This document shows positions 1 through 26,204 of a stretch of 40,000 bases of DNA, piece after piece; the stretch's first letter is position 1; each line of letters starts with the position of its first letter. Source of the stretch: Pseudomonas duriflava (GTDB taxonomy: Bacteria; Pseudomonadota; Gammaproteobacteria; Pseudomonadales; Pseudomonadaceae). The DNA is taken from the NCBI RefSeq assembly GCF_007830155.1, contig NZ_VLKY01000016.1:34771-74770 (forward strand). The letters are read 5' to 3'. The notes beneath the pieces were generated by a model. That model had not been told where the DNA came from, made no database searches, and saw only the letters and a list, made by a program, of their open reading frames with translations. The position numbers and the translations under genes were made by a program.

Positions 1-402
1 AGCAACATAACATCCTTGTATTGGTTGATTGAGAGAGCTATTAATCTCATATTCGTACCTATCGACCTCGCAGGATTAAACTTGAGGACGAGGTGTGTAT
101 TCTTCTCCAATGCCTTGGAAGCGCCGTCTGTAATTGGATAATGCTGCCAGGCAACTACTAGGTGACTGTTGATCAAGTAGCCGGGCAATGCAGATCTTGA
201 TCATGGACCTTGAGCTCGCCTCCGCTGAATCACCAGGTATTTTGGCAAGCAGTATCCCTTTGGCGTGCTGTTGCGCTGAGGGCGAAGCAATGTTCCTAAT
301 GTGGCGCTTTCGTTTCCCAGCGCAGCAGACTGCGCCTGGTATCAGATCTTCGAGGCACTGCCTTTGCTAAGGGTGATTAATGCTTGAGGGCAAACCGAGC
401 CA

Positions 403-1059
403 TTAACCGCCTTTAAGCATTACCTGCGTGACAACATCCTTGAGTGCCTTGTACGGTATCTGGGGATATTTTGAAAAAGCCCAGATAAGCGACTCGTAAT
501 AGCCAATAGCGGCCAGCCTATGGGAGGCTTCCCTATAACGTGCATCGCCCGCATGAAGGGCTCGTAGTAAGCGGCTTGCACCCTCAATGGCCGAGCAAAC
601 ACTGACTAGCAGGGAGTCGTGCTGCATTTCGGCCAAATGGTCCATAAGTAGGCCTGAATCCACTGGCTCAGGATTGCCTTGCCTGGGCATGAGCAAACCG
701 CATTCCAGCACAATGCGCAGCACGCGGTTGCCAAACTGACGATGAATGCGCGAGACATGGGCGGGCTGACGCAAACGTACATGACCCAGGAGCAGGGCCG
801 CGATGACCTGTTCTTCATCACCGCCGTTTTCCATCACCAGCGCCGCGGTACCCATGGCCTGCGCCAGCTCCTGTTCTCCTTTGGTATGAGCTGCTACAGC
901 CTGCGCAAACGCAATGAAAAGATTGCCAGTGCCGTAGGTGGAGTTGCTGTTCTTCATCACTGTACTGCTCAAGATTGTTGCTTCCTGCCGTTGCGTTAAG
1001 TCAAACGATATGTATCCTGAGGCGACACGTCTATCGTGTAGACATGCACAGGTAAACAA
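403..1059 (-). CDS. Hypothetical protein with a remote, catalytically degenerate HD_4 (RelA/SpoT-type hydrolase)-like layout. The true start is probably the internal ATG at 957 (MKNSNSTYG...).
   Basis: 218-aa ORF divergent from the WYL regulator gene. The segment AAHTKGEQ...AALVMENGGDEEQVIAALLLGHV has the spacing of the H..Q...H..VA....AALLHDv HD_4 pattern, but the HD dyad is replaced by GH. No strong SD precedes either candidate start. Confidence 0.4.
   Translation of the reverse strand: MFTCACLHDRRVASGYISFDLTQRQEATILSSTVMKNSNSTYGTGNLFIAFAQAVAAHTKGEQELAQAMGTAALVMENGGDEEQVIAALLLGHVRLRQPAHVSRIHRQFGNRVLRIVLECGLLMPRQGNPEPVDSGLLMDHLAEMQHDSLLVSVCSAIEGASRLLRALHAGDARYREASHRLAAIGYYESLIWAFSKYPQIPYKALKDVVTQVMLKGG
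1029..1043. promoter_or_regulatory. Short palindrome GTCTA-TCGTG-TAGAC in the divergent promoter region; candidate operator for the WYL regulator.
   Basis: Perfect 5-bp inverted arms with a 5-bp spacer, about 35 nt upstream of the regulator start. A second pair, ACGATA (1004-1009) / TATCGT (1032-1037), overlaps it. The arms are short, so this could be chance. Confidence 0.2.
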
Positions 1060-1076
1060 TTCGTACAGATGAGGAA

Positions 1077-1949
1077 GTGATGAAAAGGCAACAATCCCTG
1101 GACCAGATCCGCTGGGACCTGGCCCTGCGGTATCGACTGATCGAAACCATTGCCTGGTGGGAGGGCCGCCTGACCACAGGGCACCTGATGCAGAGCTTTG
1201 GTATCAGTCGGCAGCAGGCGTCAAAGGATATCAATACCTACCTGACCGAGCATGCGCCCGGTAACCTTACATATGATCGGCATTTGAAGGGCTACAAGCC
1301 CTCGAAAACGTTCAGGCCACGGTTTATTGATGGCAGTGCTGGCGCCTACCTGCACATGGTCAACCAGAACCGTGAGAAGGCGCCGCATATCAGCGGCCTG
1401 GCGGTCGCCTATTCCCACGTCGAGCAGCTTGATGTACCCGACCGGACCATTCGTCCCGAGGTGCTCAGGCCCATCCTCAAGGCCTGCCGGGAAGGGCTGA
1501 GGCTGGAAACCGAGTATGTGTCCATGTCGGCTCCGACTCGAGAAATCCGGGTCATGGCGCCCCATACCCTGGTCTATGATGGGCTGCGTTGGCATGTCCG
1601 GGCCTACTGTGAGAAGAACAGGGGCTACCGTGACTTTGTGCTTAGCCGCTTTCGGGGCGAGCCGGATCTGATGGACCCCACCGAGCATGGTCAAAGCGAG
1701 GACGAAGGCTGGAATACCGAGCTTGAGGTCATCATTGCACCAGACACCCGCTTAAGCGATGAGCAAAAGGAGATTATCGAAGCCGACTTTGGTATGGAAA
1801 AGGGACGTCTGGTTATTCCGACCCGAGGGGCACTGGTACCTTATGTTCTCAAGCGCTACCAGCTAAGCACCGATAGCATTGCGGCCAATGCGGTCGCCCA
1901 ACTGATCTATGTGGTAAACCGGGAAGAGCTGAAAAAGTGGATCATTTGA
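1077..1949 (+). CDS. WYL-domain transcriptional regulator, BrxR/CapW-like (wHTH-WYL-C-terminal extension).
   Basis: SD GAGGAA at 1071-1076; the ATG at 1080 is the likelier start. N-terminal HTH-like segment RYRLIETIAWWEGRLTTGHLMQSFGISRQQASKDINTY. Central WYL-type motif HTLVYDGLRWHVRAYCEKNRGYRDFVLSRF. At about 290 aa and at the head of defence genes, it matches the BrxR/CapW family architecture. Confidence 0.8.
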   Translation: MMKRQQSLDQIRWDLALRYRLIETIAWWEGRLTTGHLMQSFGISRQQASKDINTYLTEHAPGNLTYDRHLKGYKPSKTFRPRFIDGSAGAYLHMVNQNREKAPHISGLAVAYSHVEQLDVPDRTIRPEVLRPILKACREGLRLETEYVSMSAPTREIRVMAPHTLVYDGLRWHVRAYCEKNRGYRDFVLSRFRGEPDLMDPTEHGQSEDEGWNTELEVIIAPDTRLSDEQKEIIEADFGMEKGRLVIPTRGALVPYVLKRYQLSTDSIAANAVAQLIYVVNREELKKWII

Positions 1950-2489
1950 AAGAGGCTAGAGGGTTTTGTAAGACGGCTAATGGTATCTGGCCGACATGTG
2001 GCTCGATCAAGGGGAGATATCTGGCTGCAGACTAGCTGGGAGATTGGCCGGCATGCTCCAGAGCTGCTAGCTTTCTGTATGAGAGATTGTTGTCAATCAA
2101 AACCCGGTTGCACCTGCAGCACCGCTAAGGCCCAGGAAGCTGTCCATTCAGTCTTGTGCCATTGCATCAGCACGGAGGCGGGCAGCTCTACGAGTTCGAG
2201 CGCATGATCGTACTTGACAGCCTCTGACAGCCTTCGATCAGGCCTTGTTAAAACCTTGAAGATGAGCACGTTGCTGCTCTACGTCAGTTACGTTGGTTGC
2301 TTATCCTCTCCAATACCCTTCATCAACTGGCTCCGCCTATCTTGACCTGTAGAGCGATGCTGTTGGCGATCCCATGTTAGCCTCCTTTTACCTGCAGACA
2401 GCTAAAGTCTAGTCGCAGGGCGCCGATATAAAGCCAAACCGGTTCAGGTTGCCAATGGCTAATCCACAAGCCGTTCAAGGAGAGAATAA

Positions 2490-3197
2490 ATGATCAGGAA
2501 ATCGGTAGCAGAACTCGACTTTGTCAACCGTAGATCGCCGTTGCCCACGGTTGAAGTCGACGCTGCCTCTATTGAAGCGGCCGGCTTCAGTATTCATCAC
2601 ACCGTACTGCAGATACTGACCCGGTTGGCTGAGCAGGATAAGTCACTTCGTACCACTCTTTACTTCTATGCCTCTCCAAGCGTCAACTTTCACGAACCGA
2701 GCTTTTCTGAATTCCTTCTGGTTGCAGGTCCTGAAAAGGTTCTATTGGCCCTAGGCTCTGGCTTTAAGCAACTGCCATGCGTGAAGTCTCGATTGAGCGA
2801 TTACGTATCATCAGCCTCTGCTCTGCGAGCGTTTCATGTCCAAGAAGGTCAGGTATGGGAGCCGGAAGATGCCTGCACATGGTATTCCAATAACCAGCGT
2901 CTGGCTGACCTGACCGAAGAGGCCGAGCAGGATACCCTGCCTTTAGAGGAAGACCTGGACGACCAGGAAGACTCGGAGGATACAGAGGATACAGACCCGC
3001 TTGTGACTGCTGCCGAACACAAGGCTGCGCGCTATCGGGCCGCACGCTCTGATGCGAAAGTCAGTAGCATTCGCGCCACCATCGAGGAGGTCTTTGGTTT
3101 GCCGGCAGGCTCGGTTGCTCTCTGCGGTCCGGACAGGCGAGCACTACGCGGTAACGCGCGGATCAGGACGTTGCGTAAACGCTGGGAAGAGAGTTGA
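2490..3197 (+). CDS. Hypothetical protein with a strongly acidic central tract.
   Basis: 235-aa ORF with SD AAGGAG at 2477-2482. Acidic run EEAEQDTLPLEEDLDDQEDSEDTEDTD, followed by a basic C-terminus (RGNARIRTLRKRWEES). It ends 17 nt before the DUF262 gene and is probably co-transcribed. I recognise no catalytic motif. Confidence 0.6.
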   Translation: MIRKSVAELDFVNRRSPLPTVEVDAASIEAAGFSIHHTVLQILTRLAEQDKSLRTTLYFYASPSVNFHEPSFSEFLLVAGPEKVLLALGSGFKQLPCVKSRLSDYVSSASALRAFHVQEGQVWEPEDACTWYSNNQRLADLTEEAEQDTLPLEEDLDDQEDSEDTEDTDPLVTAAEHKAARYRAARSDAKVSSIRATIEEVFGLPAGSVALCGPDRRALRGNARIRTLRKRWEES

Positions 3198-3213
3198 GCA
3201 GGAGCGTCATTAA

Positions 3214-4710
3214 ATGATCCAGGAACATCCGGTACGGGTCAGTACATTGACCTTTGCCGATTTGCTAAAAGCAGGTCAGCCACTGGCACTGGACAGCTAC
3301 CAGCGTGGCTTTGTTTGGAGTCCTGAAAAGCTCCTGCAGTTGACAAGTGATCTTGCTGAGTTTGCAGCACAGCCAGACAAACATCTGCCCTACTATATTG
3401 GTGCAGTATTGCTGCATCATGATGCATGCCAGTCCAGAAGGTTTATCATTGATGGCCAGCAGCGCATTACTGCGCTGTCGTTGCTGTATCACCGTGCTAC
3501 CGGCAGGCTGCCCACAGGCCAGGCACTCAGCTATTCGGGACAGTCCGCGCGGCAAATCCGCAGAGGAATGCAGGCGTTGCAGCAGCAAGCGGCGATTGCA
3601 CGTGAGGTCATTGAACAACTGCGTCTGACTGTAATCGAAGTGGATAACAGCGACCTCGCATTTACCTTTTTCGATACGCAGAACAACCGTGGCGTACCCC
3701 TCCAGGCAACAGACCTGCTCAAGGCCTATCACCTGCGGGCAATCGATCATGCGAATGGCGTAGGCGAACTCAGAGCCACCCTGCAAAAAAACTGCGCCGA
3801 ACGCTGGGAGGCGATGCAGCGGTTGCCCGCAACACTGTCGCCAGGCCAGGATTTTGCTCCCTGCCTGTTCACTCGCTTTCTCTGGCGTGCTCGCCGCTGG
3901 CGCGGTACGCAAACACCAACAGACACACACGAGGCGCTGCTGTCCGAGTTCCAGATCGATACCTGGCACCACGGCGCAGATAGCCGTAGCAGCGTTGACA
4001 GTGTACCGCTCTATGCCAATCGGGTTAATAGACTGGCGACGGCGCTGACTCTGACACGTGACGGAGAGTATGTCTTGCAGGGTAACCAGGTGCGGGTCAG
4101 CCATGATCCGGCAAACCTTCCCATGGCGCTGCGCCAGCCCATTCATGAAGGCGTAGGTTTCTTTCTCTATGCTGACAAGTATGCCGCTTTGCTGCAGAGA
4201 CTGATGAATACTCCCAGGCCCTGCGCCCAGGTGACTGCATTCCGTGCAATTTATCATGAATTGCTGCGCAACAATCAGGAGTATTTGCGTGAGATTTTTA
4301 TACTCTGCACCCTGGTCTATATGGATCAGTTTGACGTCGAGCAGTTGCCTGAATTTGCCCTGCGCTTGGAGTTCCTGCTGGGTGCGATTCGTCTAAAGCA
4401 GCAACTGGTCAGGCAGGAAACGGCGGCCAATTTCTTCAGACACGCCGAACTCAATCTGCTGGATGTGATTGTGCAGAGCTACCACCCGAAACAAGTGCTG
4501 GACTTTCTGAAACGGCGTCAACAGGCCCTGCTACCGCTCTATGCCGAGGAGTCCATTAATGTAGGAAAAGGTGTGCAAGGCCGGTATAAACGAGCTGTTC
4601 TAACGTTCTATCGTGAGCAGGCAGGTTCTGCATGTTCAAGCCTTTCTGCAAAATCGCAATGGCTCGAGGCGTATCTGAAAACTTCTCTGGAAGGTCACGA
4701 TGGGCATTGA
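3214..4710 (+). CDS. DUF262 (ParB/Srx-like NTPase, GmrS-like) protein without a nuclease domain.
   Basis: DUF262 signatures: YQRGFVWSPEKLLQLTSDL, IIDGQQRITALSLL, FFDTQNNRGVPLQATDLLKAYHL. No C-terminal His-Me/DUF1524 motif. The 3' end overlaps the next gene by 11 nt. Confidence 0.85.
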   Translation: MIQEHPVRVSTLTFADLLKAGQPLALDSYQRGFVWSPEKLLQLTSDLAEFAAQPDKHLPYYIGAVLLHHDACQSRRFIIDGQQRITALSLLYHRATGRLPTGQALSYSGQSARQIRRGMQALQQQAAIAREVIEQLRLTVIEVDNSDLAFTFFDTQNNRGVPLQATDLLKAYHLRAIDHANGVGELRATLQKNCAERWEAMQRLPATLSPGQDFAPCLFTRFLWRARRWRGTQTPTDTHEALLSEFQIDTWHHGADSRSSVDSVPLYANRVNRLATALTLTRDGEYVLQGNQVRVSHDPANLPMALRQPIHEGVGFFLYADKYAALLQRLMNTPRPCAQVTAFRAIYHELLRNNQEYLREIFILCTLVYMDQFDVEQLPEFALRLEFLLGAIRLKQQLVRQETAANFFRHAELNLLDVIVQSYHPKQVLDFLKRRQQALLPLYAEESINVGKGVQGRYKRAVLTFYREQAGSACSSLSAKSQWLEAYLKTSLEGHDGH

Positions 4711-6730
4711 GTCTAGTCTCTGCACTTTGGAACAGTTGACCCACAGAGATGATGCCGCGTGGTGTTTTAATGTGCCGATTTATCAACGCCTGTACGTGTG
4801 GGCTGATGATCAGGTCAGAACGCTCTTAACCGACATAGCAAATGCATTCGATCGCCAGGACACCAGTTTTTTCCTGGGAGGTACGCTGTTGGTGGAAAAG
4901 ACCACCCATGAAGACCGAGGCGAGGGCGTCCGCCGCTTCGATCTGATTGACGGACAGCAGCGGTTCACCACTCTGTGGATGCTCAGTACGGTGCCGGTAT
5001 GGCATGAGGTGATGGGCGACTTCAGTAGGGTGCTGCTCAAGGACAGACGGATTCCGCGTCTCCATTTCTCGATCCGCGATGAGGTAAATGGCTTTCTTGC
5101 CAGCATGATGCCGGGTACCAGAGTAACGCCTTCTGAAGCAGTCGATACCCGTAGCATGAGAAAGGCCCAGCAACTGATGGCTTCCTTCGCGCAGACCTAC
5201 AAGCGTGCCGATGGCAAACCGGTAGATGATGAATATCTGAGGGGGCTCGCTGGGTATGTGTACCGCAATGTCTCGCTGGTGCTCACCCAGGTGCCTGAAG
5301 GCATGGACCTAAACAAGCTGTTCGAGGTCATCAACAACCGCGGGGTTCAACTCCAGCATCACGAGATCCTTAAGGCCAGGTTGCTGCATGATATCCCTGT
5401 ACAAGACCGCTCCCGTTGCGCGGCTCTATGGAATGCCTGTGCCGACATGAGCGGCTTTGTCGAGCGTAATCTGTCCTTAGAAGCGCAGTTGGAAGCGCAT
5501 CGGCTGGGAGATCTCTATAATAAGGGACAACTGTTGCATGCCGGTGCCGTGCACAGCTTGCTCGGGCACAATGCCAACACCGAGCAAGGTGATGATAGCG
5601 ATCGTCTGAGCCTAGAGGAAATTGTTAATGCCTCGGCAGGTAATAGCGGTATGGGGAAGACTGTTAACACCAGCGATAGCAGCGAAGCGCCTTGGGCTCG
5701 CAGCATCATTGGTTTTCCACTGTTTCTGCTTCATGTTCTTCGAATCTGGCTAAAAGAGCAGGGGCAGCCAGACCTACCACGTGTGCTGGATCGACAACTG
5801 CTCGCCCTCTTCGAGGCCCATTTGCTGGTGCCAGCGGAGTCTGTGCAGCGTGCAGAGAGGGCCCGAGGCTTTATCGACCTGCTTTGGCGCATTCGCGTAC
5901 TCTGGGATGAGTATGTGATCAAATGGGTCGACCAGGGCAATGAGGAAATACATCAGGTTTGCCACACCTCGATCTCTGCTACTGATAACAGGCGCTATAT
6001 CAATCGCAGCCGGGACACCAACCTACACCAGGGATTATCGCTGCTGCAGAGCATGCTTTACCACTCGCAGGAAATCACTACCCATTACTGGTTGACTCCC
6101 TTTCTGTATTTCATCCACAAGCATGCTAATACCGTGCGCGGTAGCAGTGGTGAGGTCGAGCGTTACTTCGGCTTCTTGTGTCACTTGGATAACCAGTTGC
6201 TGGGCGAGGTGACCGATATTTCGTTAGTTGTGCGTAGTCGTGGATTCATGGACGCCCCTTGGCGGATCGCCGCAGCCCTGCAGTTTGAAACGGCGCTGGT
6301 AGAGGACGATGGCGTCAGGTTTGCGCATTACTGGTTCTACAAGTTGGACTTCGTGCTCTGGTTTGAACAACAAAGTAAGCATGAGCTTTGGGACAACTTT
6401 CGTTTTACCGCCAAGAATTCGGTCGAGCATATTTCGCCGCAGACTCCACAGGCGACCGATACCAATACGGTCTCGAAGACGTGGTTGGACCGCTTTGGCA
6501 ATCTTGCATTGGTCTCTCGGAGTATCAACTCCGAATATGGCAATTTGCCCTTCAACGAAAAGCGTCAGCGATTTATTAATAAGCGAGAGTACGAAAAGCG
6601 GCCTGACTCCCTAAAGATGGACCTGATTTATTCGCACGATAGATGGGGGGAAGCCGCGGCCACTGCTCACCAGTCAGCCATGCTAACGACGCTACGAGAC
6701 CATTATTTAAAGGTTTTTGACTTCAACTAG
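4700..6730 (+). CDS. DUF262-DUF1524 fusion protein (GmrSD / BrxU / SspE-like NTPase-HNH endonuclease).
   Basis: N-terminal YQRLYVWADDQVRTLLTDI, LIDGQQRFTTLWML and FEVINNRGVQLQHHEILKARLL (DUF262). C-terminal NSVEHISPQTP...FGNLALVSRSINSEYGNLPFNEKR (DUF1524 His-Me finger pattern EH..P....GNL.L.....N). Confidence 0.85.
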   Translation: MGIESSLCTLEQLTHRDDAAWCFNVPIYQRLYVWADDQVRTLLTDIANAFDRQDTSFFLGGTLLVEKTTHEDRGEGVRRFDLIDGQQRFTTLWMLSTVPVWHEVMGDFSRVLLKDRRIPRLHFSIRDEVNGFLASMMPGTRVTPSEAVDTRSMRKAQQLMASFAQTYKRADGKPVDDEYLRGLAGYVYRNVSLVLTQVPEGMDLNKLFEVINNRGVQLQHHEILKARLLHDIPVQDRSRCAALWNACADMSGFVERNLSLEAQLEAHRLGDLYNKGQLLHAGAVHSLLGHNANTEQGDDSDRLSLEEIVNASAGNSGMGKTVNTSDSSEAPWARSIIGFPLFLLHVLRIWLKEQGQPDLPRVLDRQLLALFEAHLLVPAESVQRAERARGFIDLLWRIRVLWDEYVIKWVDQGNEEIHQVCHTSISATDNRRYINRSRDTNLHQGLSLLQSMLYHSQEITTHYWLTPFLYFIHKHANTVRGSSGEVERYFGFLCHLDNQLLGEVTDISLVVRSRGFMDAPWRIAAALQFETALVEDDGVRFAHYWFYKLDFVLWFEQQSKHELWDNFRFTAKNSVEHISPQTPQATDTNTVSKTWLDRFGNLALVSRSINSEYGNLPFNEKRQRFINKREYEKRPDSLKMDLIYSHDRWGEAAATAHQSAMLTTLRDHYLKVFDFN

Positions 6731-6879
6731 TATAAGTCGCTTCCTAAGCTTAACGAGGATTGATTCGTTCAAAAGCGATATCATCTGATAGGTCACAATG
6801 TCCGCTTTTAGCGCCTCGATATCTGTTGCATCTTGATCAGTACGGAGGTTTCGCTAGGCAATAAGTAAGGTATGAAGAG

Positions 6880-9800
6880 TTGGCAGAAAAGATACTGGTA
6901 GAGGAAAATATGGACCAAGGGTTAGCGGTCGGTGAGTTAGTTCAGTCTAGTGTCTTTTCTGGCATTGGCAAACTGTCGAAACTGGACCTTGAGAAGGGCC
7001 TAGGCGAGGTTGCCTTCTTCGAATCTCCTTTGAATCCTGAGACCCGTAAGGTTAGAGTAAATCTTGACGACGTTAGGAAAACTCAGTTGTATGAGGAGGC
7101 TATCGTTTATTGTCAAGATCGGGCGACAGGAATATGGCGGCGTGGCCGGTACGGTGGCCCTCGACCTCTGGACCGACATTTAGTGATTTTTCGTGCCGAC
7201 AATAACGATCAAGAAATTGTTGAAATCGACGAAATTTACTGCCTGAACTTAGGTACAAACGGCTTGTTGGATCCTTCGGCCTTTCTAGCTGCTAGATCTA
7301 ACGACGCACCTTACTTTTTTCCTTTGCGCCAGGGTTTTCTTGAGGCTTATATTGAACAGCGGGCGGCGTGCTGTTCCATCGGTGCGATTACCAGCAGTAG
7401 CGTAGAGTTGGAACCGCATCAAATTGCTGTCGTTAGGCGCGTCCTTAAGGACTCATACCCGAAGTACTTGCTAGCGGATGAAGTGGGCTTGGGCAAGACG
7501 ATCGAGGCTGGCCTGATCATCCGTGAGCACGTGCTTCAGAAGAAGTTCGACGCCAATGTTTTAATTGCGGCGCCGGCTTCTCTTGTCACTCAGTGGCATG
7601 AGGAGCTAAAGGGCCGATTTCATCTTGGCGAGTTGATGTCTACAAAACATCGATCGGAACAACTGATTCGAGTATGCAGTCATGAACAGTTGGTGACGGC
7701 TTTGGGGGAAGGCGGCCAGCCTAGCTTGTTTGTCGTTGACGAGATGCATCAATTGGCGCCGTTGGCCTGGTCCTCCGAGCAACTCTCGAATTACCGGTTT
7801 CAGGTGCTGGCGAAGGCCTGCCAGGCAGCTGAGGCGACCCTGTTATTGTCGGGAACCCCGTTGAATGGGAACGAAAGAAATTTCCTGGCGATGCTGCACT
7901 GCTTGAGTCCCGAGGCTTATGAGATCTCGGAAGCGGGGGTTCAGCGTTTCATCGCTCGAGTCAAGGAGCGTGAGTGGCTTGGCGGATTGTATAGCGCACT
8001 GACCCCGGATAACTCGAACGGCGCATTGGAACAAGCACTACAGGATCTGCGGGGGAAGTTCCCTGAGGATCAGGAGTTGCATGAGCGAATCGGCAGTTTG
8101 ATGCCGTTGGTGGATCTCTTCGCGGAGGAGAGCGGCGAGCAGCGCGAGCAACAAATCACAGGCTTGCGGCATTACCTCGGAGAACACTACCGCCTGCATC
8201 AGCGCATGCTTCGTAACCGCCGGGAAATGGGTCATCTCGCGCAGTTGTTTCCAGGATTGGCTGGTTTGCGCCGTCAATACTGGCCGATACAACCACACAG
8301 CATGCCATTGGATCTGTTGTTGGAAGAGTACCGCAGCCAGGCCTGCCGGGATCCTGATGAGTTCCAGGCGATGAGTTCTGGAGAGTACCTGGACTGGGTT
8401 GACGACCTGTTGGGCAGTCCATTGCTGGTAAAGCAGCGGGCCGATAAGTTCGATAGGCAACTGGCGGCGACGCTTGAAGCAACCGAGCGAGAGCTGCTTG
8501 CCGAAATATCCAAGCAGGCCTCACTCGAGCAGGCGTGTAAAGATCGGAGTTTGAGCGCGAGTCTGGAAGATTGGTTGGCCGAAAACCCTAAGGGCAAGGT
8601 GGTTGTTTTCTGCGGTGACGAAGTAGTCGCGGATCATGTTGCCGCTACGCTCGGTGACTCTCTGGCTGTAGGTATAGAGCGCAATGCTTCCGGCCGCGAC
8701 TTGCAGTTCTTGCTTTCGGGCGGCTCTGTGCGGGTATTGGTTTGCGATCAAGGTGGTGAAGATGGTCTTAACCTGCATGGGGGGCAGAAACTCGCCGTGC
8801 ATTACAGCCTACCGAGATCGTTCAGTCGCGTTGAACAACGTCTGGGACGATTGAACCGTTACAGCGCAAATTTGCGTGGCATCAGGCCTGTGGAAAGTTT
8901 GGTTTTGATGTCTGACCATGATGGCTTGTTCCGACGGTGGCTAGATCTGCTTGACACATCGGTAGGTGTATTCAATCAGACGGTGGCCAGTTTGCAGTAC
9001 GTACTGGAGGAGCACCTCGAAAAGACTTGGCAGGCAGTCGCGCGATCCGGCGATGAAGAGTTGCTTGTCTGCGCCAAGCAACTGAGCGGCGAGGGCGGCC
9101 TGCTGGACCGCGAGCGCCGTCGGGTGAAAGTACAGGAAGAATTGCTTGCATTGGACGAGGATGTCGCCAAGGCACGGGACTTCGCCGAAAGAATTTCTGA
9201 GGCGGACGAAATAGCCGAGGAGCAGATTGGCCGCATGTGTGCCTGGATGACGCGCGGCTTGAACTTCAGGCTAGAGGGGGATCTGCAGCAGCAATTCAGG
9301 TTGGGCTTCGGCCTTGACCCCGCTGAGCGTGGCGGTCGTACCCTGGTAGACGTGAAGACCTTTATCGAAGGTTGCATCACGGGTATTGATCCGGAAAGTG
9401 GTAACCCGCCATATACCGCTCCCATGAGTTTCTTGCGGCAGCAGGCTTCAGTTCAATCGGGCGTGTACCCCTTCCGTTACGGTCAGCCGTTCGTGGATTC
9501 CATATATGAACTGGCCGCTGGTGATTCGCGTGGGGCAACCTGCGCATTCTTGCGAATTCTTAATAGCAGTTCACTGCAGGCGCCAAAGATTTTCTTTCAT
9601 TTCAAGTGGTTGGTAACGGCTGCCCGACCGGATTGCACGTATCAGGAACAGGTTATCGCCGATGAGTTACTGGCACCTGCGGTGTATGGCCACTGGATCG
9701 CTGAAGACGGCAGCCTGGTAAAGGCCGAAAGCATATTGAAATCCCTGGAATGGCCTTACAAAAAGCCCGCGGGCGCTATCTTCCAGGATATCAATCTGCG

Positions 9801-10002
9801 CCATGATGTCTGGTCCGAGTTGGAGTTTCTATTACCTGTGGGCGAATGGAAGCGCATGGTGCTGGGTATCACTAAGTTGAGCCGAAAGAGCATCATCGAG
9901 GAGATAGGCGCTCTGCGAGGTTCCGCCCTTGACCCGCATGTGCACCTTATGGCGGTACGCGCCCAGATCCTGTGCTCGAAAGATCTGTGGAGGAATGAAT
10001 GA
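6880..10002 (+). CDS. dpdE: SNF2-family helicase, DpdE-like. The likely start is the ATG at 6910, after SD GAGGA at 6901-6905; the track starts at TTG 6880.
   Basis: SNF2 motifs: LLADEVGLGKTIEAG (I), FVVDEMHQL (II, DExH), LLLSGTPLNGN (III), LVCDQGGEDGLNLH (V), VEQRLGRLNRY (VI). It is the first gene of the overlapping dpd restriction operon. Naming follows colinearity with the published dpdD-K order, recalled from memory. Confidence 0.8.
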   Translation: MAEKILVEENMDQGLAVGELVQSSVFSGIGKLSKLDLEKGLGEVAFFESPLNPETRKVRVNLDDVRKTQLYEEAIVYCQDRATGIWRRGRYGGPRPLDRHLVIFRADNNDQEIVEIDEIYCLNLGTNGLLDPSAFLAARSNDAPYFFPLRQGFLEAYIEQRAACCSIGAITSSSVELEPHQIAVVRRVLKDSYPKYLLADEVGLGKTIEAGLIIREHVLQKKFDANVLIAAPASLVTQWHEELKGRFHLGELMSTKHRSEQLIRVCSHEQLVTALGEGGQPSLFVVDEMHQLAPLAWSSEQLSNYRFQVLAKACQAAEATLLLSGTPLNGNERNFLAMLHCLSPEAYEISEAGVQRFIARVKEREWLGGLYSALTPDNSNGALEQALQDLRGKFPEDQELHERIGSLMPLVDLFAEESGEQREQQITGLRHYLGEHYRLHQRMLRNRREMGHLAQLFPGLAGLRRQYWPIQPHSMPLDLLLEEYRSQACRDPDEFQAMSSGEYLDWVDDLLGSPLLVKQRADKFDRQLAATLEATERELLAEISKQASLEQACKDRSLSASLEDWLAENPKGKVVVFCGDEVVADHVAATLGDSLAVGIERNASGRDLQFLLSGGSVRVLVCDQGGEDGLNLHGGQKLAVHYSLPRSFSRVEQRLGRLNRYSANLRGIRPVESLVLMSDHDGLFRRWLDLLDTSVGVFNQTVASLQYVLEEHLEKTWQAVARSGDEELLVCAKQLSGEGGLLDRERRRVKVQEELLALDEDVAKARDFAERISEADEIAEEQIGRMCAWMTRGLNFRLEGDLQQQFRLGFGLDPAERGGRTLVDVKTFIEGCITGIDPESGNPPYTAPMSFLRQQASVQSGVYPFRYGQPFVDSIYELAAGDSRGATCAFLRILNSSSLQAPKIFFHFKWLVTAARPDCTYQEQVIADELLAPAVYGHWIAEDGSLVKAESILKSLEWPYKKPAGAIFQDINLRHDVWSELEFLLPVGEWKRMVLGITKLSRKSIIEEIGALRGSALDPHVHLMAVRAQILCSKDLWRNE

Positions 10003-12464
10003 TTCAGGCCCAATGGAACGCCTTGCAGAGGGCTCTGCTGGCGCCAGAGCATCAATTCGAGCAGACAGTCGTCGAGCCATACTTTCTCCGCCTGCTGATG
10101 GTGTTCGGCGACGCAAAGGCGGGCTCGGCCGATCGCGCCGTCGCTTGTCGTGATGCTTTCGGCTGTGCTCAAGCTCATGGCTGCACTGATTTGCTGCTAC
10201 AAGTGCCTGCTAGTTCCGTTGAAGGGCAACATCTAGCGCGAGTGGGCCTGACTCAAGATCCGTTAACCGACCGGGTCAGGATGGAGACTGCTCTCGAGGA
10301 AGCGGAGTTGGCGGTTTACAGACGTGAGCGTCGCCGAGTCCTGCACCAACCTCAAATAGACGTGGCCTTGAGTAGTGCTTTGGGCCGTGTTGGATTTAGC
10401 AACTACAACGGCCTCGGTCAGCAAGCTGCAGTACGTACATTGCTGACCTCTCCGGATGACAGTACGGTCTTCATCAACCTGCCGACAGGTTGCGGCAAGA
10501 CGCTGGCTGTCCATGCTTTAAGTTTGTTTGCCTATCGACAGAAAGTGGTGCTTGTCATTGTGCCAACGACCGGACTTGCCATCGAGCAGGCCGCGCGTGC
10601 TGGGGAAGTGCTGACGGCTGCAGGATCCGATCACGGCGGTAGCTACGTGTGGATCGGGGGCCAGGAGGAAGCTGAGCGTCGAGAGATTCGTGAGCGTCTG
10701 CATTGCGGCACTCAACGGATCCTGTTCTGTGCGCCCGAGTCCGCCATATCGGGCCTTAGACCATTGTTGTTCGAACTCGCCGGAAAAGGACTGCTGGGTG
10801 CGCTAGTAATCGATGAGGCGCATCTGGTCGGCCAATGGGGGGCGGAGTTCCGTCCAGACTTCCAACTGCTTGCCCCTCTTTTCCACTCCCTCAGAGAGCA
10901 CTCCTCAAGCGCCATCCGAACCTTGTTGATGTCAGCTACGTTTAATTCCGCCGCTCTGGAGGTGCTGAAGGAAGCCTTCGTTCCCGAAGGAGTTCAGGCT
11001 ATTGAGATCAATGGCAGTTTTTTGCGCCCAGAGTTGAACTTCAATGTCCGCCGAGTTATTGCAGAAGAAGAGCACCGGCAGGTTGTCGTGGACTTGCTAT
11101 GGCGTTTGCCTCGACCTCTGATTCTTTACACAACGACCCGGCAGGATGCGCAGAACTGGCGAGACTTGTTGGTCGAGCAGGGTTTCCGTCGGCTTGGCCT
11201 GTTCCATGGCGAAACCAACACCCAGGAGCGCGAACGTCTGATCGGCCAGTGGCAAGATGACCATCTGGACATCATGGTTGCGACGTCCGCCTTCGGCGTT
11301 GGCATGGATAAGAGCGATGTCCGTTCGGTATTGCATGCGGCAGTGCCAGAAAATCTGGATCGTTTTTATCAGGAGGCGGGGCGTGCCGGGCGTGACGGTA
11401 ACGCCTGTTGGTCCTGGTTGGTTTTCTACCCGGGCCAGATAAATGTGGCAGAGCAGATATCACGGGCAAGACTGATTTCCAGTGAAGTGGGATTGGATCG
11501 CTGGAACACCTTGCTGCAGAGCCGTCGACGTAGCAGTGATGGTTGCTTCAGTGTTTCTCTGTCTATGTTGCGCCGAGATTTGAAGCGACGCAGCGAAGGT
11601 AACGCAGAGTGGAACGTACGTACGTTGCTTCTGATGCAGCGTGCTGGCTTGATTCGATTGCGCTATTCACCGCCCGAGGTACCTCACGAAAACGCAGCAG
11701 TAGTCGATACGGAATTGCCTCAGGGCGACAATTACTTTGACCGCATCGATGTACAGATCCTGATGGATGCGCATCAGTCCACAGCCACTTGGCGGCACTA
11801 TGTTGATCCGCAACGTGCCCTTGAACAGCGGGTCATGGCAAACGGTTTCGCCAGTTTGCGCAGATGGCTGGATGATCCGGGCCAGTCGCTGTGCCACCAG
11901 TTAGAAGAGTTCTATCGACTGGATGGCATTAGTCCTGAACGCAGTTGCGGCGGTTGTCCTGGTTGCCGTGCTCAGGGGCGGGGACCCTTTACGCCAACGT
12001 TGAGCGCGTCTTTCCATGTGACTGGCGTAGTAACTCCCCCTATGCCGAAGTGGATGCCGGACTCCCAGTTACTGCGGATTCGCTACCGTACTGAGAGTTA
12101 TCGTAGTGTAACTCCCCGTGCTCTGATTCATAACTGGCGGCGATGGATGGTGGCTCTTCTGCGCAGCCAGCAGGTGCAGGCTGTCCGTGCCAGTCGGGCC
12201 TTGTTGGATGAAATACAGACCGATGCTGGTTTGAAAACACTACCGTTCTGGTGTGCCCTGGAACCTCGCGACAGCGCTGGAAGTTGGACTGAGTTGGTTT
12301 TACTCATGCCGGGGGAAAGCAACCTGCCTGCGGGTGGCTATGAGGTTCCAGCAAGATTGATAGTTGCGCCCGAGACTCTGAGTGATCCGTATCACCCGTA
12401 CCGAAGTTGGTGGGAGTGTGATTCCAAAAGCAAGGATTTAGTCGACTTCGAAAGGGAAATATAA
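9999..12464 (+). CDS. dpdF: RecQ-like superfamily 2 helicase, DpdF-like.
   Basis: NLPTGCGKTLAVHA (I), VIVPTTGL (Ia), LVIDEAHLVGQWGAEFRPDF (II plus the RecQ-type extension), LLMSATF (III), VATSAFGVGMDKSDV (V), FYQEAGRAGRDG (VI). Cys cluster CGGCPGCR. The start overlaps the dpdE stop (ATGA). Confidence 0.8.
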   Translation: MIQAQWNALQRALLAPEHQFEQTVVEPYFLRLLMVFGDAKAGSADRAVACRDAFGCAQAHGCTDLLLQVPASSVEGQHLARVGLTQDPLTDRVRMETALEEAELAVYRRERRRVLHQPQIDVALSSALGRVGFSNYNGLGQQAAVRTLLTSPDDSTVFINLPTGCGKTLAVHALSLFAYRQKVVLVIVPTTGLAIEQAARAGEVLTAAGSDHGGSYVWIGGQEEAERREIRERLHCGTQRILFCAPESAISGLRPLLFELAGKGLLGALVIDEAHLVGQWGAEFRPDFQLLAPLFHSLREHSSSAIRTLLMSATFNSAALEVLKEAFVPEGVQAIEINGSFLRPELNFNVRRVIAEEEHRQVVVDLLWRLPRPLILYTTTRQDAQNWRDLLVEQGFRRLGLFHGETNTQERERLIGQWQDDHLDIMVATSAFGVGMDKSDVRSVLHAAVPENLDRFYQEAGRAGRDGNACWSWLVFYPGQINVAEQISRARLISSEVGLDRWNTLLQSRRRSSDGCFSVSLSMLRRDLKRRSEGNAEWNVRTLLLMQRAGLIRLRYSPPEVPHENAAVVDTELPQGDNYFDRIDVQILMDAHQSTATWRHYVDPQRALEQRVMANGFASLRRWLDDPGQSLCHQLEEFYRLDGISPERSCGGCPGCRAQGRGPFTPTLSASFHVTGVVTPPMPKWMPDSQLLRIRYRTESYRSVTPRALIHNWRRWMVALLRSQQVQAVRASRALLDEIQTDAGLKTLPFWCALEPRDSAGSWTELVLLMPGESNLPAGGYEVPARLIVAPETLSDPYHPYRSWWECDSKSKDLVDFEREI

Positions 12465-12466
12465 GT

Positions 12467-13351
12467 ATGTCGATGGTGAATAATGCTCACCCAGGCAGCA
12501 GTCTGATCCTGCTAAATCTTATTGATCGAGTATTGGTTCGCAGGGGGAAACCAATTGCGCGCACGGAGTTATTGGAGACATTGCGGCCGGAGTTGCTCCC
12601 CAAAAGTGAGACTGGAGCAAAACGTTTTGAGTCGAATCTGGATTTCTGGTTGGAAGAAGGGTTGTGGTTGCAGGACAGCGAGGGAATGATTTTCGCGCCC
12701 CCTCAGGTCAGTGAGAATGATCTTCCGTCGCGTGTATTGCAGTTGCTTATTGATAATGCAGCCACGCGGTCGGAATCGGCTATCTTGGACGGTACTCGCA
12801 CTGAGCCATTTCTTCGTGCAATGACCTGTTTGTTAGCGCAGCGTCGGTACACCTTCATGGGCGGGGAGTCGGTAAGCTCTTCCAATGCCGCCGAGGCGGT
12901 AAATAGCCATCTACCGGGGCGGGGGTTGAATGAGTCTAACGAACTCCCGACCTTTTTGGCCTATGGGGAATTCCTTGGCTTCTTGGAGCCCTTCGGAAAG
13001 GGTTACATTGTAGATCCTACTTTAGCTATCGAACCCTACCTTGAGAGAATTTTCGAAGGCGGGCGAGTACTTCCGTTTAGAGTATTTCTCGAACGTTTGG
13101 GAGGGTACCTACCTCTGCTTGATGAAGGGGCCTATCGTCGATTGTTGGAACCTTGCATGGAAAATTGGAAGCCAGACGCACCATATGAAGTAAGCGCCGC
13201 ACTCAGCCACGCTCTAGTCCGTCTGGAAAGTCTGTTTCGATTACGCTTGGAAAAGTCCTCTGACGATAGTTTGAGTATGCGACTGCTGTTGCCAAATGGT
13301 GTTCAACGCTCCGTAGGTGAGATTCAATACCGTACTGAGGTCGCTGTATGA
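12467..13351 (+). CDS. dpdG: Hypothetical protein; DpdG by position.
   Basis: 294-aa ORF starting 2 nt after the dpdF stop and overlapping the next gene (ATGA). No motif recognised. Assigned purely by synteny. Confidence 0.5.
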   Translation: MSMVNNAHPGSSLILLNLIDRVLVRRGKPIARTELLETLRPELLPKSETGAKRFESNLDFWLEEGLWLQDSEGMIFAPPQVSENDLPSRVLQLLIDNAATRSESAILDGTRTEPFLRAMTCLLAQRRYTFMGGESVSSSNAAEAVNSHLPGRGLNESNELPTFLAYGEFLGFLEPFGKGYIVDPTLAIEPYLERIFEGGRVLPFRVFLERLGGYLPLLDEGAYRRLLEPCMENWKPDAPYEVSAALSHALVRLESLFRLRLEKSSDDSLSMRLLLPNGVQRSVGEIQYRTEVAV

Positions 13352-16300
13352 GTCTGATCAATTACTGGCCAAGTTCGGAACACATTTCCCAGTGCATCCG
13401 TACGGAGGCAGAGGAGTTAGCTGAGCACGTACTCTTAGCGGTGCATGAGCCTATGCAGTTGCTTCGGGTAGGTAACGGAGCAGAGCAGCAATGTACCGAG
13501 GCCGATCTGCTAACGCACTTTCTAGAGGTGGAGAGACCGATTCCCTTGGTCGGGCGTTCCGGCGTAGGAAAATCCCACCTGATTCGCTGGTTGGAAGCCC
13601 AACTAAAACTGCAGTCGCTATCCGCCAACTGGCATATCGTTCGCATTCCGAAGAATGCAAGTTTGCGTCAGGTATTGGAAATCCTTCTGGATGGCTTGGA
13701 AGGAGACGAGTTCGAGAGTGCACGTCTACGGATTCGGTCTGTAGGTGAAATGCTGAGGACCGGAGAGGTAGCTGACTTGCTGTTGACCTTCATGTCACAG
13801 CAATTGCAGCGACTCAACACCCGGATCGCAGAGCAAATTAGCTATTACCGAGAAAATCCGCAGGCCAGTCAAAAATTGTCTGTTGAAGAAAAGCAGCGTT
13901 GGCGAGATGTTAACGCGCATACTACGCCGGGGTGTGGTCTTTCCGAACTGATTACCGACCCTAATTTCAAGAGAAGCTTGCTTGATCCGAAGCATTGTAT
14001 TTATCAGTTCGCAAGCCGGTTGACTCAAGGCGCTACCGATCAAGAGTTAAGTCGAAACGATTACCAGATCAGGGCCGAGGACCTGGATTTCAGTTTCAAC
14101 CTCGATGACCTGTCGCAAAGCGCTCGGCAGTATGTCAGTCGAGCTCAATTGAATACCAATCGGCAAGCCCAAGAGTCCGCAGCAGGTGTATTAAACGAAG
14201 TTTTGGGAGAGTCAACCAGAACTGCTTTTCGTCATTTGTTCAGTTTCAATGGCGGTAGTTTTTTAGACCTCTTTAAAGACATCCGTCGTACCTTGAAACA
14301 TCAGGATCGCACTCTGGTAGTACTGGTGGAGGATATGGCTGCGATTTCTGCTATCGAGGACGTGCTAATCGACAGCCTTCTGGAAGAGGCCGTTAGGGAT
14401 GAAAAGCAAGAACTGTGTACGCTTCGCTCGGCTATCGCGGTAACGGATGGTTATCAAGGATATCTGCGACGGCAGGACACGATTAAAACACGTGCACAGT
14501 ATGAATGGTTGATACGTGATCATGGCCAGAGTCGCGAGCAAACGCTGGAGCGCATTGTTGATTTCTGCGGTCGCTACCTGAACGCTGCCCGTCACGGTAG
14601 TGCAAAACTGAAAGCGTCCTGGTTGGAGCGCTCGACAGACGTCAGTTGGCCGTTAATTTGGGAAGATTCCGAAGGCCCGCCGGAGGAACTCCAGGCATTC
14701 GGCCATTCGCCTTCTGGCGTGCCGCTCTTCCCTTTCAATCGCAACGCGATCAATGCGCTGGCGGATCACTATTGCAGCAACGACGAAGAGTTGAATTTCA
14801 ATCCCCGCCAAGTGTTGAACCAAGTTGTGTTGCGAGTATTACGTGATCATCGGCAGGCGTGCCAGGAGCAGAGATTCCCGCCGGCAGATTTCGCCAATAT
14901 CAAGGCCGGTGCAGGACTGATTGACCTGTATAGACTCGACGAACCAGCACGCTGCGAATCTTTGGCCGCTATCTGGGGGTACGGTTGCCGGTCTATCGCA
15001 GAGTTGCAGCAGAACTTGGATTGGCGCGTAGCAAACGTCTTCGGGCTAAACGCATTGGCATCTTTGTTGGAAGAGGTGCAACCCGTTGGTTTTGTTCGCC
15101 CACCAACGCGGACAGGTACTGGTCCGAAAAAAACTAAACCTGCGGTAGAGCCAGGAGTACTGAAATCCGAGCCTGATCCCGATCAGCACCGATTGGAAGA
15201 GATTGTTTCAGAGTGGTTTCAGCGTACAAAGAAGTTGGAGCAAGACGAATCCAGGGATCTAAGAAACGCCCTGAACAAGATGTATCAGCAATATGCTCAT
15301 CCGGACTGGTTTGGCTTAGGGGCGCGGCCGGAATTACTGCGTGGGACGATTGCTAATATCAATATTCCATTTTCCCTTACTGGGAACAAAGCCACCAATT
15401 TGGTGTGGTTCTGCCAGGAAGCGGACTTTGAGGCCCCTCAAAAGGCAGTTGCTTTGAAGGGCGTAGCGCTGGCGCTTCTGCGTTACGAGAGCGTCAATCG
15501 AAGATCCGCTGGGATAGGTTGGCAATACCCTGGTGGATTCGATGATTACCTGCGCTACCAGAATTTCGCCGCACGTTGGGTTCCGCAAGTTCTACAAACA
15601 CTTTCGCTAATGGAGCGCTCAAAACTTCATGAGGTGATGAAAGAACAATTGAGTCTAGTTCCCATCCTGGGATTATGGAGGACCGCGTCCAATGATCGCC
15701 AGCGACTCAATGAATTGCTCACTCCGGCACAAAAGATTCTGGAGTCATTGCCAAAACCTGCTTCTCCGATACTGCTAGAACTCCGCAAAAGTGCCTTGGA
15801 TGAGTGGGAAGGAAAGCGAGATGCCTGGTTGAAGTTGGTGGCCGCCAATGACCATGGTATGGATGGAGAGTTGGCGCTTAGGTCATTCAAAGAGGCTAGT
15901 AAGACTGATTTTAAGCAGAAGTTGCCAAGGTATGACAAAGAAATCACCCAGGCACTGCAGTCGTCGTTCGATGTGCTGTCCGTTCTAGATGGCTATTCTC
16001 GGCACGAGCAATTTTGCCTCTTGCTGGATGAAATGTCTGAAATTGTTCGTGGCGTAAGTGAAGGCGGGTTGCATTATCCCGCTCAGTTTTCAGACGTGCC
16101 GAATGCCAAGAGGATGCGTGAGGCATTGAACTCTCTAAAAGCAAGCGAGGTTTGGGCGGCAGTCAAGGTTTTCCTCTCATCTTGGAACGAATCTGATTTG
16201 CCCAAGAAGTTGCAGTTGATCAATCAGGTAGACGGTCAAAAACTGGAAGAGGCCGTTCAGACACTGGGTGCGTGGGATAAATTCTATTCCTATGTCTTGC

Positions 16301-16428
16301 CGCGTTTGGAGAATGAGAATCGTCAATCTGGTCTGGACGTCTTGGGGCAGTCACAGGAGAGGGTCACCGGATTGTTGAAGGGGCTGACAGGCACTTTGAA
16401 GGATTTGTTGGAGGCGTGCAGTGAGTAG
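13348..16428 (+). CDS. dpdH: Large P-loop ATPase; DpdH by position.
   Basis: Walker A PLVGRSGVGKSHL and a plausible Walker B RTLVVLVEDMAAI. 1026 aa. Overlaps both neighbours. Confidence 0.6.
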   Translation: MSLINYWPSSEHISQCIRTEAEELAEHVLLAVHEPMQLLRVGNGAEQQCTEADLLTHFLEVERPIPLVGRSGVGKSHLIRWLEAQLKLQSLSANWHIVRIPKNASLRQVLEILLDGLEGDEFESARLRIRSVGEMLRTGEVADLLLTFMSQQLQRLNTRIAEQISYYRENPQASQKLSVEEKQRWRDVNAHTTPGCGLSELITDPNFKRSLLDPKHCIYQFASRLTQGATDQELSRNDYQIRAEDLDFSFNLDDLSQSARQYVSRAQLNTNRQAQESAAGVLNEVLGESTRTAFRHLFSFNGGSFLDLFKDIRRTLKHQDRTLVVLVEDMAAISAIEDVLIDSLLEEAVRDEKQELCTLRSAIAVTDGYQGYLRRQDTIKTRAQYEWLIRDHGQSREQTLERIVDFCGRYLNAARHGSAKLKASWLERSTDVSWPLIWEDSEGPPEELQAFGHSPSGVPLFPFNRNAINALADHYCSNDEELNFNPRQVLNQVVLRVLRDHRQACQEQRFPPADFANIKAGAGLIDLYRLDEPARCESLAAIWGYGCRSIAELQQNLDWRVANVFGLNALASLLEEVQPVGFVRPPTRTGTGPKKTKPAVEPGVLKSEPDPDQHRLEEIVSEWFQRTKKLEQDESRDLRNALNKMYQQYAHPDWFGLGARPELLRGTIANINIPFSLTGNKATNLVWFCQEADFEAPQKAVALKGVALALLRYESVNRRSAGIGWQYPGGFDDYLRYQNFAARWVPQVLQTLSLMERSKLHEVMKEQLSLVPILGLWRTASNDRQRLNELLTPAQKILESLPKPASPILLELRKSALDEWEGKRDAWLKLVAANDHGMDGELALRSFKEASKTDFKQKLPRYDKEITQALQSSFDVLSVLDGYSRHEQFCLLLDEMSEIVRGVSEGGLHYPAQFSDVPNAKRMREALNSLKASEVWAAVKVFLSSWNESDLPKKLQLINQVDGQKLEEAVQTLGAWDKFYSYVLPRLENENRQSGLDVLGQSQERVTGLLKGLTGTLKDLLEACSE

Positions 16429-21612: not shown

Positions 21613-21621
21613 GGGCGCGCT

Positions 21622-22149
21622 ATGAATGAGCAGCGGCAGATTTTTCTGCATGGACCTCTGGGGCGTAGGCAGTTTCGTGAAGTACTAAGTACTATGCTGG
21701 CGTCTTTGTTGATCAATCCAGACGAGATCTGGCTTGTATCACCTTGGTTGAGCGATTTTCCTTTATTGGATAATCGCTCAGGGCAATGGAATTCATTGGA
21801 ACCCAAGTGGGGTAGTCGAACCGTTTCGTTCAGCGAGTTATTGGGTCGGGCGGTCACGGCGGGGTGTACCTTGCGAATCGCAACCCGCGATGTAGACTCC
21901 AGTCGATATTTTGTCCGTGGCCTTGAGAATCGTCTCGGCGACAATCCGGACTTTCACTACCTAATCAGTGACACCCTGCATTCGAAGGGCTTTTTGACCC
22001 GATCGGGGTTTCTTAAGGGTTCCTTGAACTACACCTTCAGTGGTACGCAACGAAACGATGAGCATGTGACTCTGACACAAGACGCACAGGTGATATCCGA
22101 TGCGTTTCTTGAATTCAAAAATCATTATCGTTTCGAGGCCGATATATGA
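21622..22149 (+). CDS. dpdK: Single-HKD phospholipase D-family nuclease (Nuc-like), DpdK-like.
   Basis: 175 aa with one HKD-type motif, LHSKGFLTRSGFLKGSLNYTFSG (H.K....(x)..GS.N). It has the size of dimeric Nuc-type nucleases. Its stop overlaps the next start (ATGA). Confidence 0.75.
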   Translation: MNEQRQIFLHGPLGRRQFREVLSTMLASLLINPDEIWLVSPWLSDFPLLDNRSGQWNSLEPKWGSRTVSFSELLGRAVTAGCTLRIATRDVDSSRYFVRGLENRLGDNPDFHYLISDTLHSKGFLTRSGFLKGSLNYTFSGTQRNDEHVTLTQDAQVISDAFLEFKNHYRFEADI

Positions 22150-26190: not shown

Positions 26191-26204
26191 AATTTAGTTA
26201 ACTC

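Follow-up and report, generated by a model that had tools for sequence, protein, structure and literature searches.

Two restriction systems built from two GmrSD-like proteins have been characterized experimentally in Vibrio cholerae (PMC11411939, PMC12137116). In TgvAB, encoded on Vibrio pathogenicity island 2 (VPI-2), a DUF262 protein without nuclease domain (TgvA) is paired with a DUF262-DUF1524 protein (TgvB). Both proteins are required, the targets are phages whose DNA carries glucosylated (glc-hmC) or arabinosylated (ara-hmC) hydroxymethylcytosine, and mutants of the DGQQR and His-Me motifs are dead (PMC11411939, PMC12409362). In GrwAB, from Vibrio seventh pandemic island II (VSP-II) of West African South American (WASA) V. 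cholerae, the nuclease protein GrwA is encoded first, the system requires its nuclease as well as both DUF262 domains, and the C-terminal region of GrwB is described by the authors as longer, multi-domain and distinct from TgvA (PMC12137116). GrwAB restricts the 7-deazaguanine phages of the Queuovirinae, with escape mutations mapping to the phage dpdA gene, and V. cholerae TgvAB does not restrict these phages (PMC12137116). Here, we analyzed a stretch of 40,000 nucleotides from Pseudomonas duriflava (contig NZ_VLKY01000016.1), hereafter the window, in which a WYL regulator gene, a gene for a 235-aa accessory protein and genes for a DUF262 protein (protein A) and a DUF262-DUF1524 protein (protein B) occupy positions 1077 to 6730, next to a cluster of dpd genes for the 7-deazaguanine-marking Dpd system. 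The original prediction for this region did not recognize a DUF262 / DUF262-DUF1524 pair as a described system; in view of TgvAB and GrwAB this statement is not supported, and the pair is a TgvAB homologue. We consider it likely, and with good confidence, that proteins A and B constitute a two-component GmrSD-like type IV (modification-dependent) restriction enzyme of the TgvAB family, carried in a self-contained cassette that is independent of Dpd. An independent type IV system of the GmrSD kind was the option that the prediction had favored less, and it is the one that our results support.

To relate the pair to TgvAB, we compared it with residues 1-399 of TgvA (VC1767) and TgvB (VC1766) of V. 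cholerae, taken from Table S5 of PMC11411939. Protein A aligned to TgvA in BLASTP with 26% identity over 405 columns (E 4e-29), in an alignment that runs through the DUF7834 region, and protein B showed 29% identity to TgvB over 422 columns (E 1e-44), spanning residues 1-399 of TgvB. According to Pfam, protein A consists of GmrSD_N (E 5e-25) followed by DUF7834 (E 9e-42), the architecture also found in TgvA, where DUF7834 covers residues 199-399 (E 3e-38). Protein B carries GmrSD_N (E 2e-27) and, at residues 539-662, GmrSD_C (E 4e-17). As in TgvAB, both proteins have QR, DGQQR and FxxxN motifs, and the second one has a His-Me finger. All of these motifs are intact: QR 30-31, DGQQR 80-84 and FxxxN 153-157 (FDTQN) in protein A; QR 29-30, DGQQR 84-88, FxxxN 208-212 (FEVIN), EHISP with H577 and GNLAL with N601 in protein B. 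The positions of H577 and N601 are comparable to those of the catalytic residues H571 and N602 that were mutated in TgvB (PMC11411939). The gene arrangement is likewise that of TgvAB, two adjacent, co-oriented and overlapping genes with the DUF262-only protein encoded first. In addition, inspection of the first 400 aa identified AGA73015 of P. putida HB3267 as a close orthologue of protein A; together with its neighbor AGA73016 it forms hit 39 in the list of TgvAB homologues (Table S5 of PMC11411939), which was obtained with the detection model of the TgvAB authors.

The single-chain enzymes GmrSD, BrxU and HEC-06 resemble the pair in combining a DUF262 NTPase with a DUF1524 His-Me nuclease, in being type IV enzymes and in lying in or beside modification-based systems, such as bacteriophage exclusion (BREX) and Hma. 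In contrast to the pair, they are single polypeptides acting as homodimers, and the similarity is confined to domain parts: PADLOC matches to HEC-06 and Orf5 were broken into 2-3 stretches and matches in the PDB covered approximately 80 aa only. HEC-06 was therefore rejected as the closest family, being a single-chain enzyme that matches only parts of the window proteins. A paper on an END-nuclease in P. aeruginosa was examined for this cassette and turned out to be unrelated. Since the alignments to TgvA and TgvB, the shared Pfam architecture, the motifs and the HB3267 orthologue all agree and the single-chain matches are partial, we assign the pair to the TgvAB family. Nevertheless, it differs from TgvAB in its low identity, by which its specificity may differ, in a third conserved gene that precedes it and has no counterpart in V. 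cholerae, and in its location beside Dpd, whereas TgvAB sits inside a type I restriction-modification (RM) operon. The conserved accessory gene and the position beside Dpd set the cassette apart from the TgvAB described so far.

The features of the locus are collected in Table 1. All four open reading frames (ORFs) were found on the + strand, so the genes, domains and orientation had been described correctly, and each has many conserved homologues, which shows that they are not chance ORFs. The genes had further been called closely spaced or overlapping. This applies to the three cassette genes, with 16 nt between the accessory gene and the gene of protein A, an AGGAG 5' of the ATG of the latter, and an overlap of 11 nt between the genes of proteins A and B (ATGGGCATTGA), but not to the WYL gene, which lies 540 nt away from the accessory gene (1950-2489). 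Similarly, the reported gap of 150 nt before dpdE corresponds to the longest dpdE ORF, which begins with the TTG at 6880 (149 nt). Because a ribosome-binding site (GAGGAAAA) precedes the ATG at 6910 and the start of the closest homologue (L029; L numbers denote our loci) coincides with it, dpdE probably starts there, at a distance of 179 nt. A promoter and terminator scan of positions 1-7200 returned site counts at chance, with none between the WYL gene and the cassette and no terminator-like site in the 179-nt gap. The whole window gave no match to Rfam, and positions 1077-6730 gave no megablast match to complete E. coli genomes.

Table 1. Features of the window (feature; positions; strand; basis or remark)
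BrxR-family winged helix-turn-helix (wHTH)-WYL regulator gene	1077-1949	+	Pfam WYL and BrxR match; neighbor of the cassette, not part of it
Locus-specific non-coding spacer between WYL gene and cassette	1950-2456	.	no homology to other cassette loci
Homology block of the three-gene cassette (accessory, tgvA-like, tgvB-like)	2457-6768	+	nucleotide comparison
Accessory protein gene (235 aa; IQ22_03945, 100% identity)	2490-3197	+	conserved family; blank in Pfam
TgvA-like gene (protein A, 498 aa): GmrSD_N (DUF262) + DUF7834, no nuclease domain	3214-4710	+	
TgvB-like gene (protein B, 676 aa): GmrSD_N + helical linker + GmrSD_C (DUF1524) His-Me finger nuclease	4700-6730	+	
Conserved dpd restriction block dpdE-F-G-H-I-J-K-D	6886-24329	+	PADLOC, NCBIfam
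dpdB-like paralogue	26205-27272	-	PADLOC DpdB, E 1e-110 to 1e-138 for the three paralogues
dpdA	27269-28564	-	surrounded, with dpdC, by the three dpdB-like paralogues
dpdB-like paralogue	28564-29688	-	see first paralogue
dpdC	29685-30620	-	see dpdA
dpdB-like paralogue	30799-31875	+	see first paralogue

To delimit the cassette, we compared it at the nucleotide level with other loci, which had been fetched via the 235-aa protein from representative genomes and assemblies and amount to tens of loci. The homology ends in sharp breaks 33 nt 5' of the first ATG and 38 nt 3' of the last stop codon. Over 4314 nt the block is 96.6% identical to two metagenome contigs (L041 and L042), and it shows 77-80% nucleotide identity to loci of P. 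aeruginosa, P. linyingensis and P. baetica. With order and spacing kept, and with proteins 67-99% identical, the trio was recovered from at least 12 other settings of the Pseudomonas group (L001-4, L007-15, L041-44). Its hosts include the three species just named, Aquipseudomonas alcaligenes, P. fluorescens, P. reactans, P. ceruminis and P. kitaguniensis, and several metagenome contigs. In the nearest copy (L041), proteins A and B are 98% and 99% identical to those of the window and an mvaT-like gene follows. In L043, a type I RM system comes after the copy, and the P. aeruginosa copy is located at a pheT-ihfA-merR site. More distant pairs of proteins A and B (47-51% identity) were found within type I RM operons (L037, L038 and L040) and after the BREX genes pglZ-brxL (L039); the accessory gene was absent from these four pairs. 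Judged by these boundaries and settings, the cassette at 2457-6768 reads as a self-contained, horizontally mobile unit.

In an alignment of the upstream regions of nine loci, the sequence shared with the window was limited to about 30 nt surrounding the ribosome-binding site. As the homology extends no more than 33 nt upstream of the first ATG, the cassette does not bring along a conserved promoter and must depend on its surroundings. In a subset of the other cassette loci a TTGCCACTGTCGAGCGTGACC element stands about 95 nt upstream, an element that the window lacks. The lack of a recognizable promoter could also be taken as a sign that the cassette no longer functions and is a remnant that the island carries along passively. 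We find this scarcely credible, given three intact ORFs with conserved catalytic motifs, preserved ribosome-binding sites and a preserved translational-coupling overlap, and copies elsewhere, 96.6% identical, that keep their reading frames.

We then considered the relation of the cassette to Dpd. The dpd cluster of the window is complete: in addition to the restriction genes dpdE, F, G, H, I, J, K and D on the + strand (PADLOC, NCBIfam), a radical-SAM gene, queC, dpdA, dpdC and three dpdB-like paralogues occupy 24857-31875, with queC, dpdB, dpdA and dpdC on the - strand. The Dpd models of PADLOC and NCBIfam match 6880-31875 only and leave the cassette outside the dpd gene set. According to the reading that the original prediction favored, the pair would be an SspE-like effector coupled to Dpd, whose DUF262 domain senses the 7-deazaguanine mark of the host and whose DUF1524 domain nicks unmarked invading DNA. 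The pair is indeed adjacent to and co-oriented with dpdE, without a terminator-like site in between, and SspE, the phosphorothioate-sensing nickase of SspABCD-SspE, has the same DUF262-DUF1524 architecture and gave weak PADLOC matches over the N-terminal 80 aa or so. However, this resemblance is confined to the shared N-terminal DUF262 core, whereas the matches to TgvA and TgvB extend over approximately 400 aa. Moreover, SspE depends on its modification genes and co-occurs with them, whereas no such co-occurrence with dpd was observed for the cassette: no dpd genes were present in the retrieved flanks of the at least 12 other cassette settings, including the 98-99% identical L041, and pairs of this type also lie beside type I RM and BREX systems.

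The same result was obtained from the side of dpd. Eight metagenome dpd loci encode a DpdE 63-93% identical to that of the window, with flanking dpd genes up to 97% identical, and none of them carries the cassette upstream of dpdE within the 0.1-10 kb available (at least 4 kb in four loci). In L029, genes of the type found in integrative and conjugative elements (ICE) take its place. At the nucleotide level, homology to dpd loci begins at 6886-6898, just 5' of the ATG at 6910, and reaches 95% to L029, L030 and L035; between the cassette block (end 6768) and the dpd block (start about 6886) lies a unique junction of about 117 nt. A joint occurrence of the four genes with dpd in related genomes, by which the prediction had proposed to be checked, was thus not seen, and among the loci examined the cassette is adjacent to Dpd only in this genome. 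This distribution already largely refutes an SspE-like coupling to Dpd, which we regard as very improbable. As TgvAB- and BrxU-type enzymes generally occur beside modification-based systems, the adjacency to dpd is one instance of this tendency and does not indicate a specific functional coupling. The region 1077-6730 is therefore a composite and not one system, an ordinary defense-island mosaic, and the pair should not be cited in support of a nuclease that reads deazaguanine. With this correction, Dpd joins type I RM and BREX among the modification-based systems beside which TgvAB- or BrxU-type enzymes are found, in keeping with the view that self-marking systems are backed up by type IV enzymes where phages carry hypermodified DNA.

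If V. cholerae TgvAB is taken as the model, proteins A and B would act together as a complex. Both DUF262 domains would bind and hydrolyze nucleoside triphosphate (NTP) and help to sense hypermodified phage DNA, for which glucosyl- or arabinosyl-hydroxymethylcytosine is the best precedent, and NTP-dependent sensing would license cleavage of the DNA by the His-Me finger of protein B (H577, N601). Defense-island mosaicism would have brought the cassette to its place, with the WYL gene on one side and the Dpd cluster on the other. Its context suggests that it works without Dpd and is not a reader of the mark; it may complement Dpd by covering phages with hypermodified DNA, as BrxU does for BREX and TgvAB for its type I RM system.

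Several points weigh against the assignment to a Dpd-independent TgvAB-family cassette. First, the identity to V. cholerae TgvA and TgvB is only 26-29%, and at this level substrate specificity is not transferable with confidence. Secondly, the alignments cover residues 1-399, and the C-terminal nuclease region was compared through Pfam and motifs only. Thirdly, co-occurrence was judged from a sample of tens of loci. Fourthly, homologues of the accessory protein stand without a nuclease neighbor in L016-L018, which weakens the view of a dedicated nuclease partner. Finally, the related two-gene system GrwAB restricts 7-deazaguanine phages, a precedent that makes deazaguanine specificity possible in principle.

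This last point leads to a further explanation, in which the pair would have a broad, GrwAB-like specificity that includes 7-deazaguanine DNA and would be potentially autotoxic, with the accessory and/or the BrxR-like protein silencing it until infection. GrwAB is, as the pair, a two-protein GmrSD-like system; its activity against Queuovirinae, with escape mutations in phage dpdA, shows that such systems can recognize 7-deazaguanine DNA. The ability of BrxR-type regulators to repress defense operons and the lack of a conserved cassette promoter would also be in keeping with a silenced enzyme. By its published description, however, GrwAB is set apart from the pair: here the nuclease gene comes second (tgvA then tgvB, not grwA then grwB), and protein A carries a TgvA-type DUF7834. 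In addition, TgvAB of V. cholerae was inactive against Queuovirinae (PMC12137116). The host itself also speaks against such a specificity. With dpdA, dpdB, dpdC and queC present, its DNA should carry dPreQ0 (2'-deoxy-preQ0) and dADG (2'-deoxy-7-amido-7-deazaguanosine), and a stable host of this kind would be expected to have an enzyme that ignores these bases. Lastly, the accessory gene is also present in cassettes of dpd-free genomes and is accordingly not a Dpd-specific safeguard. Overall, we judge a GrwAB-like specificity to be improbable. For the TgvAB-family reading, coexistence with Dpd leads to the prediction that this TgvAB homologue must tolerate DNA containing dPreQ0 or dADG, unlike GrwAB.

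We also analyzed the WYL regulator. In agreement with the initial assignment as BrxR/CapW-like, residues 13-287 match residues 9-281 of BrxR (7t8k, E 4.6e-62), CapW (7tb6) is matched with E 1e-38, and the BrxR-family architecture of wHTH, WYL and C-terminal dimerization domains is present (Pfam WYL E 1e-12; PADLOC WYL E 6e-25). The match to BrxR is near full-length and the setting is a defense island, but the gene does not lie directly upstream of an operon of BREX or of the cyclic oligonucleotide-based antiphage signaling system (CBASS). BrxR-type regulators repress defense operons. The gene had been described as heading the module, and the WYL, accessory, tgvA-like and tgvB-like genes could accordingly form one BrxR-controlled four-gene unit with WYL as its dedicated regulator. 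All four genes point in one direction, the stretch between 1949 and 2490 is free of terminator-like sites, a conserved promoter is missing from the cassette, and five other cassette loci (L009-L012 and L015) contain a WYL homologue within 10 kb (67-69% identity). In these five loci, however, the homologue is located about 7 kb upstream, behind an oppositely oriented operon for an ankyrin protein and a PD-(D/E)XK/RNase H-like/superfamily 1 (SF1)-helicase protein, and in the majority of cassette loci no WYL homologue lies within 10 kb. The 540 nt between the WYL and accessory genes hold no sequence common to other loci. The 507-nt spacer within them (1950-2456) is unique to this locus, and neither an operator nor a promoter or terminator was detectable in it; no inverted repeat that could serve as an operator was detected in 900-2520.

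Furthermore, WYL homologues 67% identical to that of the window stand divergently and directly beside dpdE in L035 (8454-9320, -) and L036 (175-1041, -). The description of the WYL gene as head of the module is thus not supported, and we consider a dedicated four-gene unit doubtful, although WYL regulation of the cassette in this one genome is possible. From its neighborhoods, the regulator may be linked to dpd, or to the insertion site of the island, rather than to the DUF262 cassette. Being found with a helicase-nuclease cargo, with dpd or with the cassette, the WYL gene behaves as a recurrent defense-island regulator. Divergent from it in the window is a gene for an HD_4-domain protein (403-1059, -). 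Only 17 nt separate the longest ORFs of the two genes, so that the annotated start of at least one of them has probably been placed too far upstream. In L023, too, a small HD_4 protein is encoded, here 3' of an accessory-protein homologue.

The accessory gene is the first gene in every cassette copy and the only undescribed element of the region, which is in this respect modestly novel. The prediction had called its product an acidic protein. This is correct for the whole protein (isoelectric point, pI, 4.9) and for an acidic disordered linker at about residues 141-184 (38 aa, pI 4.05), but not for the C-domain at about residues 185-235, which is strongly basic (pI 11.4); the N-domain (residues 1-140) has a pI of 5.8. 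In an AlphaFold2 (AF2) model based on 27 homologues, the N-domain adopts an alpha/beta fold, and the predicted local distance difference test (pLDDT) exceeds 90 for residues 1-130 and falls below 50 for residues 146-184. Searches of Pfam, NCBIfam, PADLOC, PHROGs and PDB sequences, a profile search included, gave no match to the protein, and the matches obtained with Foldseek against PDB and viral structures, which were ACT/NIL-like, did not reach significance (E 0.02 or worse). The family itself is large, with 152 homologue matches and 494 clusters at 50% identity in a profile search. In the alignment, many polar and aromatic residues of the N-domain are invariant, and the C-terminal motif RYRAARSDA...FGLPxGSVALCGPD...TLRxRW is near-invariant.

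Outside the cassette, homologues of the accessory protein are encoded between hsdS and hsdR (L005), before single-chain GmrSD-like genes (L024, L025 and L027), before an HNH_2 nuclease gene (L021) and before an SbcCD-like pair (L026). Fusions of the N-domain were observed as well, with an HNH nuclease, with a DUF2779 nuclease-like domain and with ankyrin repeats. Since the family stands beside many different restriction-type nucleases and its N-domain is fused to nucleases, we infer that the accessory protein regulates or targets the nuclease, and its C-domain is probably nucleic-acid-binding. We tentatively extend this to a possibility that we would not yet call probable: a new accessory family of about 500 clusters may control or target several nuclease types, with an ACT-like sensor of a ligand or of modified DNA, a basic nucleic-acid-binding C-domain and a linker serving as an autoinhibitory DNA mimic, and the cassette would be a three-component TgvAB variant with a new regulatory principle. 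In any case, the accessory gene offers a route to the regulation of two-protein GmrSD-like enzymes, which published work leaves open.

Additional observations concern the mobility and the settings of this family. The accessory domains appear as independently mobile parts (our proteins P0356, P0341, P0274 and P0309; L027 8566-9384 and L028 9329-10135). In Caballeronia and Paraburkholderia the basic C-domain stands behind a different acidic N-terminal region, and in L027 the gene for this combination adjoins a GmrSD-like gene. In L016-L018, the homologues (about 9000-10740, 60-62% identity) lie amid housekeeping genes, such as those for an AcrB-type pump, a short-chain dehydrogenase and type II secretion, and in L016 and L018 an uncharacterized acidic protein of 306-308 aa is encoded ahead of them. 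A gene of about 1040 codons upstream in L016 was considered as dpdE and rejected, as it encodes an AcrB-type transporter.

The remaining part of the island was analyzed with respect to its composition. The usual number of dpdB genes is one, and three are present here; a DndB domain was found in both of the two DpdB-like paralogues scanned with Pfam. On the dpdA/B/C modification side (26000-33000) the GC content amounts to 0.43-0.47, compared to 0.48-0.58 over the cassette and dpdE-D (1-25000), a difference that suggests separate origins for the modification half and the restriction half of the island. At the far end of the island, 33009-34559 and 34701-35942 encode a fusion of NUDIX and ADP-ribosylglycohydrolase domains and a SoFic-like Fic protein. 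Homologues of the ADP-ribosylglycohydrolase (44-47% identity) are located 0.4-3.6 kb from WYL homologues in L010 (922-1974), L011, L015 and L035 (3788-4867).

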